DNA of 64,000 nt, taken from Arcobacteraceae bacterium. Its GTDB lineage: Bacteria > Campylobacterota > Campylobacteria > Campylobacterales > Arcobacteraceae. Position 1 is the stretch's first letter, and every line of letters begins with the position of its first letter. The notes under the pieces are model-generated. The model saw only the letters and a program-made list of their open reading frames with translations. It was not told where the DNA came from and ran no database searches. The stretch is from assembly GCA_963662945.1 (NCBI GenBank), contig OY759974.1:1056001-1120000 (forward strand), written 5' to 3'. A program made the position numbers and the translations under genes. Below are positions 4,219 to 20,966 of this stretch, one piece after another.

Positions 4219-4950
4219 TTAACTAAAAAACAATATCTTGAAAGATAAAAGATACAATACAATACCTAGTATTTTTTTTATAGTTTTTGATGATACTTTA
4301 AAGTATAAAATATAGTTCCCAACTATACCGCCAATATATGCACCCAATCCAACTACCAAAAGCAATAAATAGTCTATATCTATCACTGTTGCATAACTTG
4401 TAAATGCTACCAATGAAGAAAATGGTATCACAAAAGATATACTAATAGCTATCTTTTTTGCATCATATCCACATAGTATCAGAATAGGAGAAATGATTGA
4501 CCCACCTCCAACTCCTAAAAATCCTGAAAAAAATCCCCCAATTGAACCCACCACATAAAGTATTATTTTATTTGTTTGTTTTTCTACATTATTTGAACTT
4601 GTACCAAATATCATCAAAGTTGCTATAAAAACAAGTGTTGTTGCAAATACATTTTTAACAATTTCAGCATCAATACTTAATGAGATTTTTGCACCAACAT
4701 AGGCAAATATTATAGAACTTATAACCAATGGTAAAATAAACTCTTTATCAAAAAGCTTTTTTTTAAAATTCAAATAACTTGTTGTAACAGTTGTCACAAA
4801 GTTTACAAATAAACCGCTAGCACGAGAGATATCAAAAGAGAGTCCAGCAAAATTTAATGTTGGAACCAATGCAATTGCAGAACCTACTCCTGCAATTGCA
4901 AATATTGTTGAGAGAATTACAGTAAGTACAAAATAAAGTAAATATTCCAT
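4219..4950 (-). CDS. TauE/SafE family sulfite exporter-like membrane protein
   Basis: About 8 TM helices with the repeated motifs AGVGSAIALVP and SGFLGVGGGSIISP. Confidence 0.85.
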   Translation of the reverse strand: MEYLLYFVLTVILSTIFAIAGVGSAIALVPTLNFAGLSFDISRASGLFVNFVTTVTTSYLNFKKKLFDKEFILPLVISSIIFAYVGAKISLSIDAEIVKNVFATTLVFIATLMIFGTSSNNVEKQTNKIILYVVGSIGGFFSGFLGVGGGSIISPILILCGYDAKKIAISISFVIPFSSLVAFTSYATVIDIDYLLLLVVGLGAYIGGIVGNYILYFKVSSKTIKKILGIVLYLLSFKILFFS

Positions 4951-4953
4951 CGG

Positions 4954-6255
4954 TTATTTTAACCTTTGTCTTGAAATTTCTCGTACATAATCCATCCCTA
5001 TATAAAACTCTTTCATTAGTATCAAAAGTAAATATTTCCCAAATGGCGTAGTTTTAGAATAATCTTTTTCCAGTATTCCAAAATATTTTAAGAGTAAAAA
5101 TAAAAATTTATGTTTTTTGTATTTTTCAAGATTAATGTTATTTGAAAATAAATCTAACATCAGTTGATATTTTAAAATATCTGTGTTTTTGTATTTTTTA
5201 AATCTTTCCTGGGAAAGTTCCCCTTGTATGATTTTTTCTTTATATTTTTCTAAGGAGAAAGTATTGATATACAAAGTGTCTTTTATAAAGCTAAAAGAAC
5301 CTGAACCTAAGCCTATATATTCATTATATTCTACTACATATTCATCAAAAGTATGAATATCTTTTTTTGCAAAAGTCCAAGATGAGATTTGATTGTATTT
5401 TTCTTTTAAAGTATCTACAATCATATTATAAAATTTTGCCTCATTATCAGTATCCAATTTTCCTAAATTTTTTTCAATTCTTTTTTTTACAGAAGGAGAA
5501 TACATCAAAGGATAAAAAGATATTTGTTCTGAATTCATTTTTAAAATCATTTTTAAATCATTTTGTAAAATCTCTTCTGTTTGACTAGGAAGATTAAAAA
5601 TAAAATCAAGATTTACAATTGGAAATTGTCCTATTGCTTTAGAGACATTTTCTAATTGCATTTTTGATGATCCAAATTTTTTATATCGTTTTATTTTTTT
5701 AAGCATCTCATCATTTGTTGTTTGAATTCCTACAGATAATCTATCCACTTTTTTTGATAATAATGTAACTAACTTTTCATCTATTAAAGGATCACCTTCA
5801 CAAGAAACATCTTTGATACTAAAAAGCTCTTTTGCATAGTCTATGGTTTTTACTAATTCATCTGGCAATATTGTAGTAGTTCCACCACCTATGTATAATG
5901 ACACAAAATCATATCCCAAAGATTGAATGATTTCCATCTCTTTTCGTAAATAGTAAAAATATTCTCTAGCTTGTTCTTCTTGAAATTTAAACTTATGAAA
6001 AGAACAATAAGGACATAAAGTTTTACAAAAAGGAATATGTAAATACAATAAATAATTTTTATTTTTCTCTGGTTTTGGAGGAATAATTTTTTGTGTTGTA
6101 TATTGAAAATCTAAGAACTTTTTCGTTTTTCTTTTCATATAAAATGATGCAACTTTTACGATAAATTTTTGAAAAAAACTATACTTAAAAGTTACATTAT
6201 TATCTAAAATTTCAACACTATTACCTACACAGTGATTTGGGTCTATTTGATTCAT
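4954..6255 (-). CDS. HemN-like class C radical SAM enzyme, probable menaquinone methyltransferase (MqnK/MenK type)
   Basis: YLHIPFCKTLCPYCSF (CxxxCxxC), YIGGGT, DRLSVGIQ, QISFYPLM, DEYVVEYNEYIGLGSGSFS. Start placed at ATG 6255; uncertain. Confidence 0.75.
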   Translation of the reverse strand: MNQIDPNHCVGNSVEILDNNVTFKYSFFQKFIVKVASFYMKRKTKKFLDFQYTTQKIIPPKPEKNKNYLLYLHIPFCKTLCPYCSFHKFKFQEEQAREYFYYLRKEMEIIQSLGYDFVSLYIGGGTTTILPDELVKTIDYAKELFSIKDVSCEGDPLIDEKLVTLLSKKVDRLSVGIQTTNDEMLKKIKRYKKFGSSKMQLENVSKAIGQFPIVNLDFIFNLPSQTEEILQNDLKMILKMNSEQISFYPLMYSPSVKKRIEKNLGKLDTDNEAKFYNMIVDTLKEKYNQISSWTFAKKDIHTFDEYVVEYNEYIGLGSGSFSFIKDTLYINTFSLEKYKEKIIQGELSQERFKKYKNTDILKYQLMLDLFSNNINLEKYKKHKFLFLLLKYFGILEKDYSKTTPFGKYLLLILMKEFYIGMDYVREISRQRLK

Positions 6256-14618: not shown

Positions 14619-14831
14619 CAATCTCCTCCTAAAGTTTAAAATAAAGTCACGAATTCGCCACTTATGATGGCATTTTAACAGATTAAAATTTAAATCAATC
14701 TGAATTAGTTAATTGTTTGTTAATTTATTTTAATTAAATTAAATATTTAATTTTTATTTAAGATATAATTTAATCTAGAATTAAGAATTGGTAATGTATA
14801 GTTCTATCATAAGTTATTTAAAGGAGATGCA

Positions 14832-15581
14832 ATGAGTAGCAAAATAACAAAAGGAATTATATCATTCTTAAGTATGGTTTTCATTATTGGTTCTGCATAT
14901 GCAGATGAAAAAAAAGTTGTAGATCCTATGCTGGCTATACCTACAGCCCAAGCACATCAAACAATTGATAAAACAATACAAGATTTGGCAAATAGGTTAT
15001 TCTCAAGCAGTAAAATATCAAAAGAAGCTATTAATGATATTGCTATCACATCTTTTGTTGATTTACACCAATTTGATAAAACTACTCATTTCGGACGAAC
15101 TTTATCAGAGGGATTTTTTGATGAACTCTTCATACGAGGATTTCATGTAAGTGATTTTAGAGGGCAAGGGACTCTTTCTATTAATAAAGAAGGAGAATAT
15201 TTTCTTACACGAGATGTAAAGTTACTTAATAAAGATGTACAAAGTGATTATGTTCTAGTAGGAACATACACTATATTTGAAAATAAAGTTTTAATCAATG
15301 CTAGAATTATGGATAATCAGAATGGAAGAATTTTAGCAAGTGCAAGAGCAAATTATATTACAAATGATTGTAATGTATTACAAAACTGTAAAAAACCTCG
15401 AATAATCAACATTGTTTCAGATGCATATAAAAAGAATAGCTCAAGAGAAAATGTAAGTGTTGTTGATAAAAAAGAGATAAGTTTAAAACAACATTTTGTA
15501 AAAAAACAATTAGATGAACAAGAAGAAGTTATGGAAGTAAAAACAAAAACACCATTTCCTCTTGTGAACCTTATTAAATAA
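14832..15581 (+). CDS. FlgO-domain exported protein (paralogue 1)
   Basis: Signal peptide ending SAYA, IAITSFVDL, FGRTLSE, GEYFLTRD, VLVGTY and INARI. Confidence 0.85.
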   Translation: MSSKITKGIISFLSMVFIIGSAYADEKKVVDPMLAIPTAQAHQTIDKTIQDLANRLFSSSKISKEAINDIAITSFVDLHQFDKTTHFGRTLSEGFFDELFIRGFHVSDFRGQGTLSINKEGEYFLTRDVKLLNKDVQSDYVLVGTYTIFENKVLINARIMDNQNGRILASARANYITNDCNVLQNCKKPRIINIVSDAYKKNSSRENVSVVDKKEISLKQHFVKKQLDEQEEVMEVKTKTPFPLVNLIK

Positions 15582-15591
15582 AGGATAAATA

Positions 15592-16797
15592 ATGTTAAAA
15601 AATATACTCAAACTAACTTCTGTTGCAATTTTATCAACAACTAGTTTAGTTGCAGACAAAGTAACTATATCAAATGATGGAACGGGCGATTTTCTTATAT
15701 CACCTTTATATATAGCAAAAGGGGATATTTGTAGCGAAGTTAAAATTTTCAATACAAATGAAACTAGTTCAATTTTAGCAAAAGTTGTATTCAGAGAAAA
15801 AATTGCTTCACACGAAGTTGATTTACCAATATTTTTGTCTCCTGGTGATGTTTGGGCTGGAAAAGTATGTGAGATAGATAATAAAATTATTTTAAAAAGT
15901 GATGATGACTCAAATCATCCAGCAGCATTAGAAACTCTTGCTAAAGGTAAAGATTTAACTGAACATAGTAAAAATGCAGGTTACAGAAATGTAGATGTTG
16001 CACGAGGATATGTAGAAATAAATGGTAAATCTTTTGAAATCAAAGAACAAGAAAAAGATAATCTTGATTTTTCAAGAGGTTATGTAGAAGTTTATCCTAT
16101 TGCACAATATTATGAAGGTAGTAGAAAAAAGGTTCCAAAGAACTTTTTAGTTGACAGATGGGATAGATTAATTGATAAAGATAAATCAAATCCAAAACTC
16201 AGTAAATTTGGTATTGATAGTTTTAGCTTAAGTGGACTAGTTTCATTTCAAACAGAAAATCAAGAAACAGCATCAATTCCTATGACTGCATTTAAAGGTG
16301 CGCATGATAAATTAGTTCTTGGAGAGGCAATTAATTACAGCAGTCAAGCAAAACCTGAAGAACTTTTAGGGAAAGATAAAGTAAAAGAAATATTGACACT
16401 TTTACAAAATGAAAGATTTTCATTTACTTATGATAATGCAGGTGATTGTCAATATATTAATATTGTTTTTCCTTTCAGCCATAAAGAGAAACAGTCAAGA
16501 AAGTTCAAATTTACTATTAGAGATATGAATGAAAATAAATATACTATGATATTTTCACCTCGATCTAATATCGTAAATGAGGTTGGATATATTCCTGTAA
16601 GTGATTTAATTAAACTTACAAGAGACACTGTTAAATATAATAAAGGAATGGTGCAAATCACAGCTTTAACAAATAATGATGAAGTACAATTAGGACAAAA
16701 TCAAACAGCATCAATTATTCCAACTATTTCAAGAATAAAACCAATAGGTGGAAAAGACATTATGATTAATGCAAGTTATTTACCAACTAGAAAATAA
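15592..16797 (+). CDS. Sec-exported 401-aa protein resembling proteobacterial cell-surface/S-layer proteins
   Basis: Signal peptide, DGTGDFLISPLY, NTN, AKVVFRE, IFLSPGDVW and RGYVEV. The family resemblance is from memory, not from a search. Confidence 0.55.
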   Translation: MLKNILKLTSVAILSTTSLVADKVTISNDGTGDFLISPLYIAKGDICSEVKIFNTNETSSILAKVVFREKIASHEVDLPIFLSPGDVWAGKVCEIDNKIILKSDDDSNHPAALETLAKGKDLTEHSKNAGYRNVDVARGYVEINGKSFEIKEQEKDNLDFSRGYVEVYPIAQYYEGSRKKVPKNFLVDRWDRLIDKDKSNPKLSKFGIDSFSLSGLVSFQTENQETASIPMTAFKGAHDKLVLGEAINYSSQAKPEELLGKDKVKEILTLLQNERFSFTYDNAGDCQYINIVFPFSHKEKQSRKFKFTIRDMNENKYTMIFSPRSNIVNEVGYIPVSDLIKLTRDTVKYNKGMVQITALTNNDEVQLGQNQTASIIPTISRIKPIGGKDIMINASYLPTRK

Positions 16798-16835
16798 CTT
16801 GCTTTAACTTTTCTTAAATAAAAAAACAATATAAT

Positions 16836-16865
16836 CTCTCAGTAAATTTATACTGAGAGGTTTTT
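16836..16865 (+). terminator. Terminator-like hairpin overlapping the SD of the next gene
   Basis: CTCTCAGTA-aattta-TACTGAGAG followed by GTTTTT and the ATG. Confidence 0.55.
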
Positions 16866-17594
16866 ATGAAATATATTCTATCAATTGCATTCGTAACTTT
16901 ATTCTTTAGTGGTTGTTTTCAAAATACACCGTTTAATAATGAACCAAAAACATACAAAGAGAAAGTTATTCAAGAGGTAAGAAGTGCGGATTATAACCAA
17001 CCTTATGCTAAAACACACAATATCTATCAAGATTTAAATGGTGCCATTGTATCTATAGGTGATCAGCTATTTACATCAAATATATTTTCAGAAAAAGAAC
17101 CAACAAGTATTATCCTAACATCATTTGTTAACCTAAATGAGCTTGAAAGAACAAGTACTTTTGGACGAGTATTAAGTGAAAGTATGTTTAATGAACTTCA
17201 TATTCGACACTTTAAAGTAACAGATTTTAGAGGTCAAGATGCAGTATCAGTAAATGCAAATGGTGAGTTTCACATAACAAGAGATGTAGATAGATTAAAA
17301 GATCATATTAGTGCAACAGAATACATAGTTGTAGGTACATATGTAAAATTTGAAAATGATAGTGTATTATTAAATGCTAGAATTTTAGATTCTGAGAATG
17401 GTGCAATTATTTCAACTGCAAGAGTTATTTATACGCCAAAAGATTGTAAGCTTTATAATCTATGTAATATAAAAGAAGCTGATATTAAACCAGCTGATTT
17501 TGGTATTAATATCGTTAAAGACAAATGTTCAGGTGATAATTGTCCAGCAAAAAAATGTAAAGATGGAATATGCGACGAATCAGCATTATATTAA
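16866..17594 (+). CDS. FlgO-domain lipoprotein (paralogue 2) with a Cys-rich tail
   Basis: Lipobox FSGC, ILTSFVNL, FGRVLSE, GEFHITRD, VVGTY and LNARI. Confidence 0.88.
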   Translation: MKYILSIAFVTLFFSGCFQNTPFNNEPKTYKEKVIQEVRSADYNQPYAKTHNIYQDLNGAIVSIGDQLFTSNIFSEKEPTSIILTSFVNLNELERTSTFGRVLSESMFNELHIRHFKVTDFRGQDAVSVNANGEFHITRDVDRLKDHISATEYIVVGTYVKFENDSVLLNARILDSENGAIISTARVIYTPKDCKLYNLCNIKEADIKPADFGINIVKDKCSGDNCPAKKCKDGICDESALY

Positions 17595-18169
17595 TACTAT
17601 CGTTTCTATTCAATGGGTGTACCCTTATTAAAGAGGGTGAAGATTCTTTTAAATTTAAGTATTTACATCTTACAACAACAACAAATTTTGATACATTAAC
17701 AAAAAATTTATTGCAACAACTTTGTCCAACAATTTCTAGTGTTAACAAAAGTAAAACTCCGCTATATGTAGTTGATTTTGTAAATTTACAAGATTTACAA
17801 AATAATTCAGAATTAGGTTTTATGTTATCGGATGAATTAAAAACACAAGTTACGCAAGTATGTAATATGCCTATTTATGCTATAGAATATTCAAAATATC
17901 TTAAAATTGGTCCAAATGGTACGAAGTTTTTATCAAGAGATTTAGATGAGTTAAATAATCAAAAAATCAATCGAAATACCTATGCGCTTGTTGGAACATA
18001 TGCATTTACACAAAGACAACTTATCTTATACCTAAAACTTATTGATTTAAATACTGGTGTTATAATAAAGTCTGCAACTCAAAAAACACTTATAACAGAT
18101 GAAATTATACATTTAGAAAAGAAAAGCAAAGCTTCTCAAAACACTATTTACGCTCCAGTAGTTCTTTAA
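17570..18169 (+). CDS. FlgO-domain lipoprotein (paralogue 3, divergent)
   Basis: Lipobox FNGC, YVVDFVNL, LGFMLSDE, FLSRD, LVGTY and LKLIDL.TG.I. Confidence 0.8.
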   Translation: MRRISIILILSFLFNGCTLIKEGEDSFKFKYLHLTTTTNFDTLTKNLLQQLCPTISSVNKSKTPLYVVDFVNLQDLQNNSELGFMLSDELKTQVTQVCNMPIYAIEYSKYLKIGPNGTKFLSRDLDELNNQKINRNTYALVGTYAFTQRQLILYLKLIDLNTGVIIKSATQKTLITDEIIHLEKKSKASQNTIYAPVVL

Positions 18170-18181
18170 AAAATTAAAGAG

Positions 18182-19126
18182 TTATAATAACTCTTTAATT
18201 GCATCGATAAATGTCTCATTATCATTAATACATTTACAAACTCTGTATTCTTTTATACCTAATTCTTTTGCAAGTTCTCTATATTCTATATCAAGTTCAA
18301 AAACTGTTTCACTGTTATCAATTATAAAAGAGATAGGATAAATAATCACTTTTTCCCCTTTAAAATGTTTTAGCATCTCTTCTAAACTAGGTCTTAACCA
18401 CTTCATTGGTCCTACTTTTGATTGGTATGCTAAATTAATTGATTTTATTTTTGTTGCATAATGTGTTAATTTTTCTTTTAAAATTTCAACATGCTCTTCA
18501 ACTTGTTTTTGATAAGGATCTCCATTATTTACAATTTTCTGTGGCAACCCATGTGCTGAAAAAATAATATGAAAATCATTATATTTTCCTTGAACTCTAA
18601 TAATCTCATCACAAATGGCTTTATTGTAAAGTTCTTTTTTATAAAAAGGTTCTATCACTGTAATATTAAACTCTTCCTCTTGAGCTTTTAACATAAAATC
18701 ATCAATACTAGATTTTACAGTAGTTGTAGAATATTGGGGATACAGTGGAAGTAAAATCACATCTTTAATATTTTGTTCTTTAATTCTTGCAATAGCAGTT
18801 TGTGAAAAAGGTGAAGTATATCTCATTGCATCTGTTATAAAATACTCTGGTAATTCTTTTTCTAATTTTTCTATTAGTTTATTCGTCAATTCATGTAAAG
18901 GAGAAGCTCCCCCAATCTCTTCATAGTTTTTCCAAGCTTTATTTAATCTAAATGTTACAATCAAAGAAGCTAACATGGAACGTATTGTTGTATTTTTTAA
19001 TGTTAATATATTTTCATCATTAAACATATTTGTTAAAAATACTTCTAGTTCATCTTTGCTTCTAGCTGCACCCATATTTAATAATACTAACGCTTTTTTA
19101 TAAATCAAATTCTTCGAATGTGTCAT
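18182..19126 (-). CDS. hemH: Ferrochelatase
   Basis: LLNMG, GGASPL, AMRY, PLYPQYS, FSAHGLP, GDPY, YQSKVGP and DNSET. Confidence 0.96.
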   Translation of the reverse strand: MTHSKNLIYKKALVLLNMGAARSKDELEVFLTNMFNDENILTLKNTTIRSMLASLIVTFRLNKAWKNYEEIGGASPLHELTNKLIEKLEKELPEYFITDAMRYTSPFSQTAIARIKEQNIKDVILLPLYPQYSTTTVKSSIDDFMLKAQEEEFNITVIEPFYKKELYNKAICDEIIRVQGKYNDFHIIFSAHGLPQKIVNNGDPYQKQVEEHVEILKEKLTHYATKIKSINLAYQSKVGPMKWLRPSLEEMLKHFKGEKVIIYPISFIIDNSETVFELDIEYRELAKELGIKEYRVCKCINDNETFIDAIKELL

Positions 19127-19727: not shown

Positions 19728-19813
19728 AAATGACATTCTATCTTAATTTTTATAAGATAAGTTAAAGTAAATTACTTGTATTATTTGTGAAACAAAAATT
19801 TAGGAGATATAAT

Positions 19814-20086
19814 ATGAAAAAAATCGTATTAGGAACATTAGTATGTAGTGTTGCTGCATTCGCTGCAGTTAATTTAGGAGCATGTAAAGGTTGTCACGGT
19901 GCAAACTTTGAAAAAGCTGCTTTAGGAAAATCTAAAATCGTTTCAGACATGACTAAAGATGAAGTTTCTGCTGCACTTGTTGGGTACAAAAATGGTACTT
20001 ACGGTGGGGCTATGAAAGGTGTAATGAAAGGTCAAGTTGCTAGATATAGTGAGGCTGAATTAAAATCTACTGGTCTTGGTAAATAA
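19814..20086 (+). CDS. Monoheme cytochrome c553-like
   Basis: Signal peptide, CKGCH and YGGAMKGVM. AGGAG SD before ATG 19814. Confidence 0.93.
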   Translation: MKKIVLGTLVCSVAAFAAVNLGACKGCHGANFEKAALGKSKIVSDMTKDEVSAALVGYKNGTYGGAMKGVMKGQVARYSEAELKSTGLGK

Positions 20087-20113
20087 TTAAACTATTTTTA
20101 AATAGCAGATTTT

Positions 20114-20154
20114 AAAAGCCAATCACTTAATTTTAAGTGGTTGGCTTTTTTTTT
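20114..20154 (+). terminator. Intrinsic terminator after cytochrome c553
   Basis: AAAAGCCAATCACTTAA / TTAAGTGGTTGGCTTTT stem followed by a T-run. Confidence 0.85.
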
Positions 20155-20189
20155 AGATTAAGTTAGATTATTTACACTGGGAGATTAAT

Positions 20190-20966
20190 ATGAGAAAAAT
20201 TACTTTAGGGATTTTAGCGTGTACAACAATACTTCTATGTGATGTAAATATTGAATCATGTAAAAGTTGTCATGGTGCTGATTTTGAAAAAGCAGCTCTT
20301 GGGAAGTCAAAAATCGTAAAAGATATGACAAAAAGTGAAGTTTCTGCTGCTCTAATTGGATACAAGAACGGTACATATGGTGATTCAATGAAAGGGATTA
20401 TGTACAATAACGTTAAGATGTACACCAATAAAGAATTAAGTACCACAGGTATTGGTTCAAGCACAAAAATTATGAAACAAGGTCTAAAAAGTTCTATTGA
20501 TCTTACTTCTTGTAAAGGATGTCATGGAGTTGATTTTGAAAAAGCAGCTCTTGGTAAATCTAAAATAGTAAGAGATATGACAAAAAGTGAAGTCTCTGCT
20601 GCTTTAATTGGATATAAACATGGTACTTATGGTGGAAGTATGAAAGGTATTATGTATAATAATGTCAAAATGTACACCAACAAAGAGTTAAGTACGACAG
20701 GTATAGGTGTAAATAATGTCATTCATAAAGAGCCAATTAAGAGTTCTATTGATTTGACTTCATGTAAAGAATGTCATGGGGTTGACTTTGAAAAAGCATC
20801 ACTTGGTTCTTCAAAAATTGTAAGAGATATGACTAAAGAAGAAGTTATAGAAGCACTTCTTGGATACAAAAATGGTACCTATGGTGGAAGTATGAAAGGT
20901 GTTATGATAGAAAAAGTGAAAGCTTACAGTGAAGAAGAATTAAGAACAACTGGATTAGGTAAATAA
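20190..20966 (+). CDS. Triheme cytochrome c made of three tandem c553 domains
   Basis: CKSCH, CKGCH and CKECH, each followed by FEKA.LG.SKIV.DM and SMKG.M. Confidence 0.9.
   Translation: MRKITLGILACTTILLCDVNIESCKSCHGADFEKAALGKSKIVKDMTKSEVSAALIGYKNGTYGDSMKGIMYNNVKMYTNKELSTTGIGSSTKIMKQGLKSSIDLTSCKGCHGVDFEKAALGKSKIVRDMTKSEVSAALIGYKHGTYGGSMKGIMYNNVKMYTNKELSTTGIGVNNVIHKEPIKSSIDLTSCKECHGVDFEKASLGSSKIVRDMTKEEVIEALLGYKNGTYGGSMKGVMIEKVKAYSEEELRTTGLGK

Follow-up and report, generated by a model that had tools for sequence, protein, structure and literature searches.

FlgO paralogues of an uncultured Arcobacteraceae genus as candidate flagellar disk proteins, with an exported protein inserted among their genes in one clade

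The window analysed here, a stretch of 64,000 nucleotides from an Arcobacteraceae bacterium (contig OY759974.1, positions 1,056,001 to 1,120,000 of the forward strand), carries a locus of four genes that encode three proteins with a FlgO domain (FlgO1, FlgO2 and FlgO3) and, between the first two, an exported protein of 401 amino acids (P401). Taken alone, the FlgO genes probably encode proteins of the flagellar outer-membrane disk. Recruitment of P401 by FlgO1, again taken alone, is a tentative and rather doubtful proposal, while the whole reading, with the FlgO proteins in the disk and P401 as an add-on tethered to it by FlgO1, seems to us evenly poised between right and wrong. The FlgO2/FlgO3 pair is already known, and the locus is no new class of secretion or S-layer system. 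The four genes are co-oriented, with operon-like packing and a G+C content of about 28% across the locus:

14832-15581, plus strand: FlgO1, 249 amino acids (open reading frame (ORF) list, PF17680)
15592-16797, plus strand: P401, 401 amino acids, starting 10 nucleotides (nt) after FlgO1
16866-17594, plus strand: FlgO2, 242 amino acids (ORF list, PF17680)
17570-18169, plus strand: FlgO3, 199 amino acids, overlapping FlgO2 by 25 nt

The locus lies at 1.071-1.074 Mb of the genome, between ccoNOQP (minus strand, ending at 14621) and hemH (minus strand, 18182-19126), in a lineage that belongs to an uncultured Arcobacteraceae genus known from metagenome bins only. The four genes with their coordinates, signal types and operon-like packing, as described in the original prediction, were all recovered from the ORF list, from Pfam and from the leaders, signal sequences and lipoboxes having been read by eye from the translations.

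All three FlgO proteins matched family PF17680 above the Pfam cut-off of 22.6 bits, FlgO1 with 119.3 bits (E 1.3e-34), FlgO2 with 108.1 bits (E 3.7e-31) and FlgO3 with 74.0 bits (E 1.3e-20), and theirs are the only FlgO-domain genes in the whole genome. In a PDB sequence search queried with FlgO1 and FlgO3, residues 42-174 of FlgO1 matched the H-ring FlgO of Vibrio cholerae (9yds/9yfg) at E 2e-20, and FlgO3 matched V. cholerae FlgO at E 0.0047. The FlgO domain of FlgO1 spans residues 51-173 and is followed by a conserved Cys-x5-Cys; its leader is of the signal-peptidase-I type, with no cysteine and no lipobox. FlgO2, which ends in a Cys-rich C-terminal tail, and FlgO3 are predicted lipoproteins, with lipoboxes reading ..FFSGC and ..LFNGC, respectively.

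Paired FlgO genes have been described in this family before. Mo et al. 2022 (PMC9321776) takes the genes of FlgO and of a paralogue, FlgO', to be a likely operon in Arcobacter, and attributes the concentric outer-membrane rings of the motor to FlgO. The account of Arcobacter-type motors in Chaban et al. 2018 (PMC5758724) gives them PflA/PflB and a FlgO homologue without FlgP/FlgQ, describes the disk of A. butzleri as 5-6 concentric rings closely apposed to the outer membrane and 'likely' containing the FlgO homologue, and calls the Arcobacter-type disk 'strikingly similar' to the Vibrio disk. FlgO2 is most likely the counterpart of Arcobacter FlgO, and the diverged FlgO3 that of FlgO'. The two settings share the family Arcobacteraceae, a flagellated genome and adjacent, co-oriented FlgO lipoprotein genes of which one is conserved and one diverged, and the overlap or adjacency of FlgO2 and FlgO3 recurs in other loci. 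In contrast to the Arcobacter operon, the genus studied here adds a non-lipidated third paralogue, FlgO1, and one of its clades has P401 between FlgO1 and FlgO2 together with a C-terminal tail on FlgO1. The location also differs, since the genes lie beside ccoN/hemH here, whereas the pair in three other Arcobacteraceae genera neighbours ORFs read by eye as pyrG and recJ-like. The P401 insert, the third paralogue and the FlgO1 tail were not found in literature searches, the scope of which left out supplementary figures S9 and S10 of PMC9321776. The initial statement that no description of this module was known thus still holds, within these searches, where the insert and the third paralogue are concerned; the FlgO pair, on the other hand, is already published.

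The genome of the window is itself flagellated, with FlgH, FlgI, FliF, FlhA and several flagellins. Across an order-wide sample of 301 genomes, the window's own included, FlgO was found in 45 and FlgH in 257; every FlgO-positive genome (45/45) had FlgH as well, and the 44 genomes negative for FlgH were all negative for FlgO. Among the sampled Arcobacteraceae, FlgO and FlgH were each present in 23 of 24 genomes, the sole genome without either being G227 (1.3 Mb, 99% complete), which also lacked FlgI and flagellin. In this family, the usual state is two neighbouring FlgO copies, one of them conserved and the other diverged. In the sample of the genus, two FlgO-positive genomes (84% and 61% complete) were without FlgH, and both gave flagellin matches. 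This phyletic pattern is weak evidence that fits a flagellar role for FlgO, and it agrees with the treatment of FlgO/FlgO' as suspected disk components in PMC5758724 and PMC9321776; the notion of a non-flagellar system, with which the analysis of this locus had started, is disfavoured by both.

Several observations nevertheless weigh against the reading favoured here. The FlgO locus is separated by 246 kb or more from the flagellar genes identified in its genome, where FlgH, FlgI, FliF, FlhA and the flagellins are located at 1.32-1.545 Mb and 0.115 Mb; the earlier remark that no flagellar genes lie nearby is therefore true for the six families searched, these among them. Arcobacter flagellar genes are described in PMC6477937 as mostly clustered. 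The ORFs adjoining FlgO in 10 fetched loci matched none of our queries, and by their first residues, read by eye, they look like housekeeping genes (pyrG, recJ-like, ilvE-like). Moreover, 85% of the sampled genomes are flagellated, and most of the negatives come from one non-flagellate family (0/24), so that about one loss, that in the reduced genome of G227, is what makes the co-distribution informative. Finally, no experiment places any Arcobacter FlgO in the motor.

This distance from flagellar genes, the housekeeping-like neighbours and the lack of an experimentally localised Arcobacter FlgO would also suit a non-flagellar periplasmic scaffold that the FlgO paralogues form under the outer membrane with P401 as its client, which amounts to the anchor half of the original prediction minus its pore. 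The FlgO copy number, which ranges from 1 to 7 per genome (two genomes of the genus have 7 matches) and includes loci with a fourth, divergently transcribed copy, points the same way. On balance we consider such a scaffold improbable. FlgH accompanies FlgO in all 45 FlgO-positive genomes, the FlgO-less Arcobacteraceae genome is without flagellar markers, the sole characterised homologue is a flagellar H-ring protein, and the description of the Vibrio-like disk of A. butzleri in PMC5758724 names no other candidate protein.

A far bolder proposal had been that the three FlgO proteins make up a CsgG-like outer-membrane channel that exports P401 as a Sec-dependent, S-layer-like protein. The export signals on P401 and on all three FlgO proteins and the operon-like packing of their genes are in keeping with it, but so much else is not that we regard it as highly improbable. 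No CsgG match was found at E <= 1 in Pfam for FlgO1, FlgO2 or FlgO3, the matches above the cut-off being to FlgO only. CsgG resembles these proteins as a ring-forming lipoprotein under or in the outer membrane, and the original prediction credits both with a similar fold, whereas the FlgO ring that has been characterised is poreless: a preprint (10.64898/2025.12.02.691832, 2025) reports that the V. cholerae protein was solved in situ as a lipoprotein forming a C58 ring within the H-ring, with no pore, and that FlgO and FlgP make two concentric 58-fold rings, likewise poreless. In addition, the FlgO trio is kept in the genus without P401 and P401 is kept elsewhere without FlgO, while P401 itself matched no S-layer family and contains a pair of invariant cysteines. 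What survives of the proposal is the idea of hetero-oligomeric FlgO rings, which is plausible by analogy with the FlgO/FlgP rings of V. cholerae, and that of a tether for P401, which is still possible as the tail of FlgO1 co-occurs with it; the secretion pore does not.

The P401 protein carries a leader of the signal-peptidase-I type without a lipobox cysteine and had no Pfam or NCBIfam match at E <= 1. Its AlphaFold2 (AF2) model, built with 30 homologues, reached a predicted local distance difference test score (pLDDT) of 84 and a predicted template-modelling score (pTM) of 0.83. The model comprises an N-terminal jelly-roll beta-sandwich (about residues 22-222), with SPRY, galectin and lectin-like matches at Z of about 5, and a C-terminal beta-sandwich (about residues 267-401) resembling TM1070 and the Anabaena sensory rhodopsin transducer (ASRT). 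For the latter domain, VIA-align gave Z 8.9-9.0 with TM1070 (1nc7; rmsd 3.2, 105 aligned residues) and Z 6.8 with the transducer. Two cysteines, C47 and C93, are invariant in the P401 alignment. Foldseek of the model against the PDB returned nothing at E <= 0.001, and a profile search of PDB sequences found no solved relative. The listed fold matches from two VIA-align searches were generic beta-sandwiches only, with no FlgT, TasA or S-layer entry among them. An S-layer family or anchoring domain was likewise absent from the Pfam, NCBIfam and PDB sequence matches and from the listed folds, although S-layer diversity is too high for this to exclude one; the description of P401 as S-layer-like accordingly found neither a family nor a solved relative to lean on.

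The superfamily to which P401 belongs is large: a profile search against clusters at 50% identity yielded 1345 clusters at E <= 0.001, 332 at 1e-10 and 39 at 1e-30, most of the 1345 sharing only about the first 110 positions with P401. A Pfam scan of 10 of the 150 listed distant relatives assigned no family, and the closest clusters in the ESM Atlas are unnamed hypothetical proteins of Acidobacteriota. Distant relatives that have only the N-terminal domain in common with P401 occur in loci with a PPIase-like protein, a small lipoprotein, the P401-like protein, a large exported protein and sometimes a subtilase. Such P401-like genes (400-500 amino acids) lie in repeated modules at the loci L014, L015 and L021-L024, where the PPIase-like gene is joined by a lipoprotein gene of about 150 residues, an exported protein of 580-956 amino acids and sometimes subtilase and prepilin-like genes; L014 and L015 are two copies of the module on one 35-kb contig of genome G040. 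This module may be an uncharacterised surface or periplasmic assembly of its own.

Within the genus, 23 of 24 genomes have FlgO, and P401 was found in 11 of 24 genomes other than that of the window. All 11 loci fetched from these other genomes have P401 immediately next to one FlgO gene or more, so the four-gene arrangement is not due to chance. The order FlgO1-P401-FlgO2-FlgO3 is complete in 8 of the 11; two of the others are cut by contig ends, and the third (L011) has no FlgO3 in the fetched stretch. The 11 clade loci from named records have the same gene order, with a gap of 9-17 nt between FlgO1 and P401. Genomes of the genus that lack P401 have FlgO1, FlgO2 and FlgO3 contiguous beside ccoN, and the FlgO module is therefore independent of P401, besides being older and more widespread. 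In a FlgO2 tree of 15 rows, two of them outgroup rows on very long branches, a single clade comprised the 9 P401-bearing rows (support 88/84), with the 4 P401-less rows placed outside it; the tree leaves out L048, which has no FlgO2 on its contig, as well as L026, L027 and L029, all three of them almost identical to the window.

Other variants of the FlgO locus were encountered in the same genus. Genome G008 (L052, L053) has FlgO1 alone at the ccoN/hemH site and FlgO2-FlgO3 about 440 kb away beside a recJ-like gene, the position of the pair in other Arcobacteraceae genera. A gene for a fourth FlgO-family lipoprotein lies just upstream of FlgO1 in L031 (2442-3158), L032 (107-835) and L035 (2117-2872), divergently transcribed in L031 and L032. 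One P401-less genome (L051) has a gene for a 142-residue lipoprotein without a family (4927-5355) between FlgO2 and FlgO3. Between FlgO3 and hemH, L026 (6665-7962) and L027 (6667-7967) encode an exported FecR-domain protein (E 1.6e-10) and a 180-residue lipoprotein, an insert absent from the window.

FlgO1 is most likely a genus-level third paralogue that lost its lipid anchor, being lineage-specific and soluble. In the clade with P401, it carries an extension beyond the FlgO domain:

15417-15578, plus strand: FlgO1 C-terminal tail, about residues 196-249, Lys/Glu-rich and ending in ..PLVNLIK (orthologue alignment)

The alignment revealed this tail in 8 of 8 orthologues from P401-bearing loci, versus 0 of 4 from P401-less genomes of the genus, in which FlgO1 ends right after the FlgO domain. 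Its length varies from about 45 to 130 residues, and it ends in ..PLVNLIK, ..SLIN, ..SLID, ..FSLIK or ..LDLIK. The conservation of this end motif in tails whose remainder differs in length suggests that the motif is under selection. A tethering link between FlgO1 and P401 is possible in view of the co-occurrence of tail and P401. The 9-17 nt spacing between the two genes has, furthermore, persisted through a divergence of P401 to about 54% identity in the clade. Complex prediction with mature FlgO1 (25-249) and mature P401 (22-401) scored 0.00 twice in runs that had no controls, which is evidence neither way.

P401 might alternatively be looked upon as a passenger, functionally unrelated to its neighbours and sharing only a promoter with flgO1 and flgO2, with the tail as a by-product of the same event. 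Since P401 and the tail both map to one clade, their co-occurrence counts as a single event, and one insertion or deletion could explain both without a functional link, which tells against a connection between FlgO1 and P401. So does the distribution of P401 outside the clade. Full-length orthologues that share the signal peptide and the invariant residues, at 43-51% identity, were found in Poseidonibacter, Sulfurimonas, a Helicobacteraceae bin, another Arcobacteraceae bin and Nautiliaceae, and none of the 12 P401 loci outside the clade had a FlgO gene in its flanks, some of which are cut by contig ends. The linkage to FlgO genes in other genomes on which the original prediction depended is thus confined to one clade. 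In genome G301, P401 and FlgO are on different contigs. In two genomes of Nautiliaceae, G119 and G229 (both 99% complete), P401 is present while FlgH and FlgO are absent, and G119 is without FlgI and flagellin as well. P401 occurs there with neither FlgO nor flagellar markers; its family thus requires no FlgO and apparently no flagella either.

Outside the clade, P401 has a different companion. An exported protein of 375-517 amino acids follows it in 11 of the 12 loci; 10 of these proteins align as one family, and C-terminal Sel1/TPR repeats were found in all 5 that were scanned with Pfam. An AF2 model of this partner (pLDDT 79, pTM 0.50) gave a list of fold matches that was taken up by the Sel1/TPR repeats rather than by its N-terminal beta domain, and a profile-profile comparison of the partner family with the FlgO family detected no relation (probability 0.3%). 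The P401-like/Sel1-TPR pairs of Poseidonibacter, Sulfurimonas and Nautiliaceae resemble the window in their full-length P401 orthologues, but differ in that a Sel1/TPR protein follows, no FlgO gene is adjacent and some of the genomes are without flagellar markers.

A terminator-like hairpin between P401 and FlgO2, described below, is a further point for the passenger, yet we hold it to be somewhat unlikely. The arrangement and its 9-17 nt spacing have been kept across the clade despite the divergence of P401, the end motif of the tail is conserved in tails of otherwise unequal length, and no Sel1/TPR partner of the usual kind turned up in the genome of the window, where searches returned repeat-level matches only (E of about 0.007).

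The expression signals of the locus can be outlined as follows. FlgO1 has an AAGGAG ribosome-binding site 7 nt ahead of its start codon (ATG). A scan for sigma-70-like promoters found 28 sites versus 26.1 expected and is uninformative; terminator-like sites, in contrast, numbered 5 versus 0.7 expected. The one that concerns this locus stands directly before the FlgO2 ATG:

16836-16859, plus strand: hairpin with a perfect 9-bp stem, then GTTTTT; its 3' arm holds the GAGAGG ribosome-binding site

Although the terminator scan reported this hairpin on the minus strand, it is palindromic. The hairpin could act between P401 and FlgO2 as an attenuator of transcription or translation, and could in this way set the level of FlgO2 and FlgO3 below that of FlgO1 and P401. 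A 277-nt contig from a wastewater metatranscriptome matches FlgO1 at 14951-15227 with one mismatch, but does not establish transcription, as an RNA library can hold DNA; RNA contigs covered nothing else of the locus.

For the favoured reading, we infer disk location, ring formation and a contact between FlgO1 and P401 from homology, gene order, phyletic patterns and a fold model. FlgO2 and FlgO3 would be anchored in the outer membrane and would polymerise beneath it into the concentric-ring disk around the L/P-rings. Their overlapping frames may lead to synthesis at a ratio of about 1:1, with FlgO3 possibly taking the place that FlgP has in Vibrio. The P401 gene would have been inserted between flgO1 and flgO2 in one clade of the genus, and its product would be expressed together with the FlgO proteins; the FlgO1 tail would retain it in the periplasm, making it an addition to the disk that is peculiar to this lineage.

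The V. cholerae H-ring (9YDS/9YFG) offers a further comparison. It has in common with the present locus a homologous FlgO domain and a lipid anchor, predicted here for FlgO2 and FlgO3; according to the preprint, its FlgO and another small lipoprotein stand at 1:1 in concentric rings, and the same structure contains FlgT, a Sec-exported protein of about 380 amino acids. It differs from the present case in that FlgO1 is non-lipidated, and in that the motor descriptions of PMC6477937 and PMC5758724 report no FlgP or FlgT homologue for Arcobacter. As a proxy for FlgP, which we take to be linked to the LPP20 family, we ran an LPP20 Pfam search of the window's own genome, which gave no match, the controls being silent too. 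Any likeness between P401 and FlgT is one of role only, because FlgT is not among the listed structural matches of P401.

Such a likeness of role underlies a more far-reaching possibility, in which the disk of the clade gained a new ring, the non-lipidated FlgO1 and P401 with its two sandwiches jointly doing the job that a single three-domain protein, FlgT, does in Vibrio. The middle domain of FlgT resembles TolB, and the Vibrio gene order is flgT-flgO-flgP; the new ring leans on both of these pieces of background. We think this reading, in which the end motif of the FlgO1 tail would dock as a strand into a P401 sandwich, unlikely.

Elsewhere in the window, two adjacent exported proteins of 99 and 258 amino acids are encoded at 19787-20966, with one and three copies, respectively, of a module of about 85 residues with a haem-binding motif, C-x-x-C-H; both have the appearance of tandem mono-haem cytochrome c repeats.

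The components of the Arcobacter-type disk are so far no more than suspected, and the family-wide FlgO/FlgO' pair, with its co-loss with flagellar genes, provides concrete targets for deletion. The insert that is specific to one clade amounts to a small natural experiment in how motors acquire new periplasmic parts. P401, in turn, flags a large exported family (the 1345 clusters above) with no Pfam model and no known function, regularly paired with a Sel1/TPR protein in other Campylobacterota. If the new ring proved true, this would be a flagellar motor caught in the act of recruiting an unrelated periplasmic family that normally goes with a Sel1/TPR partner.

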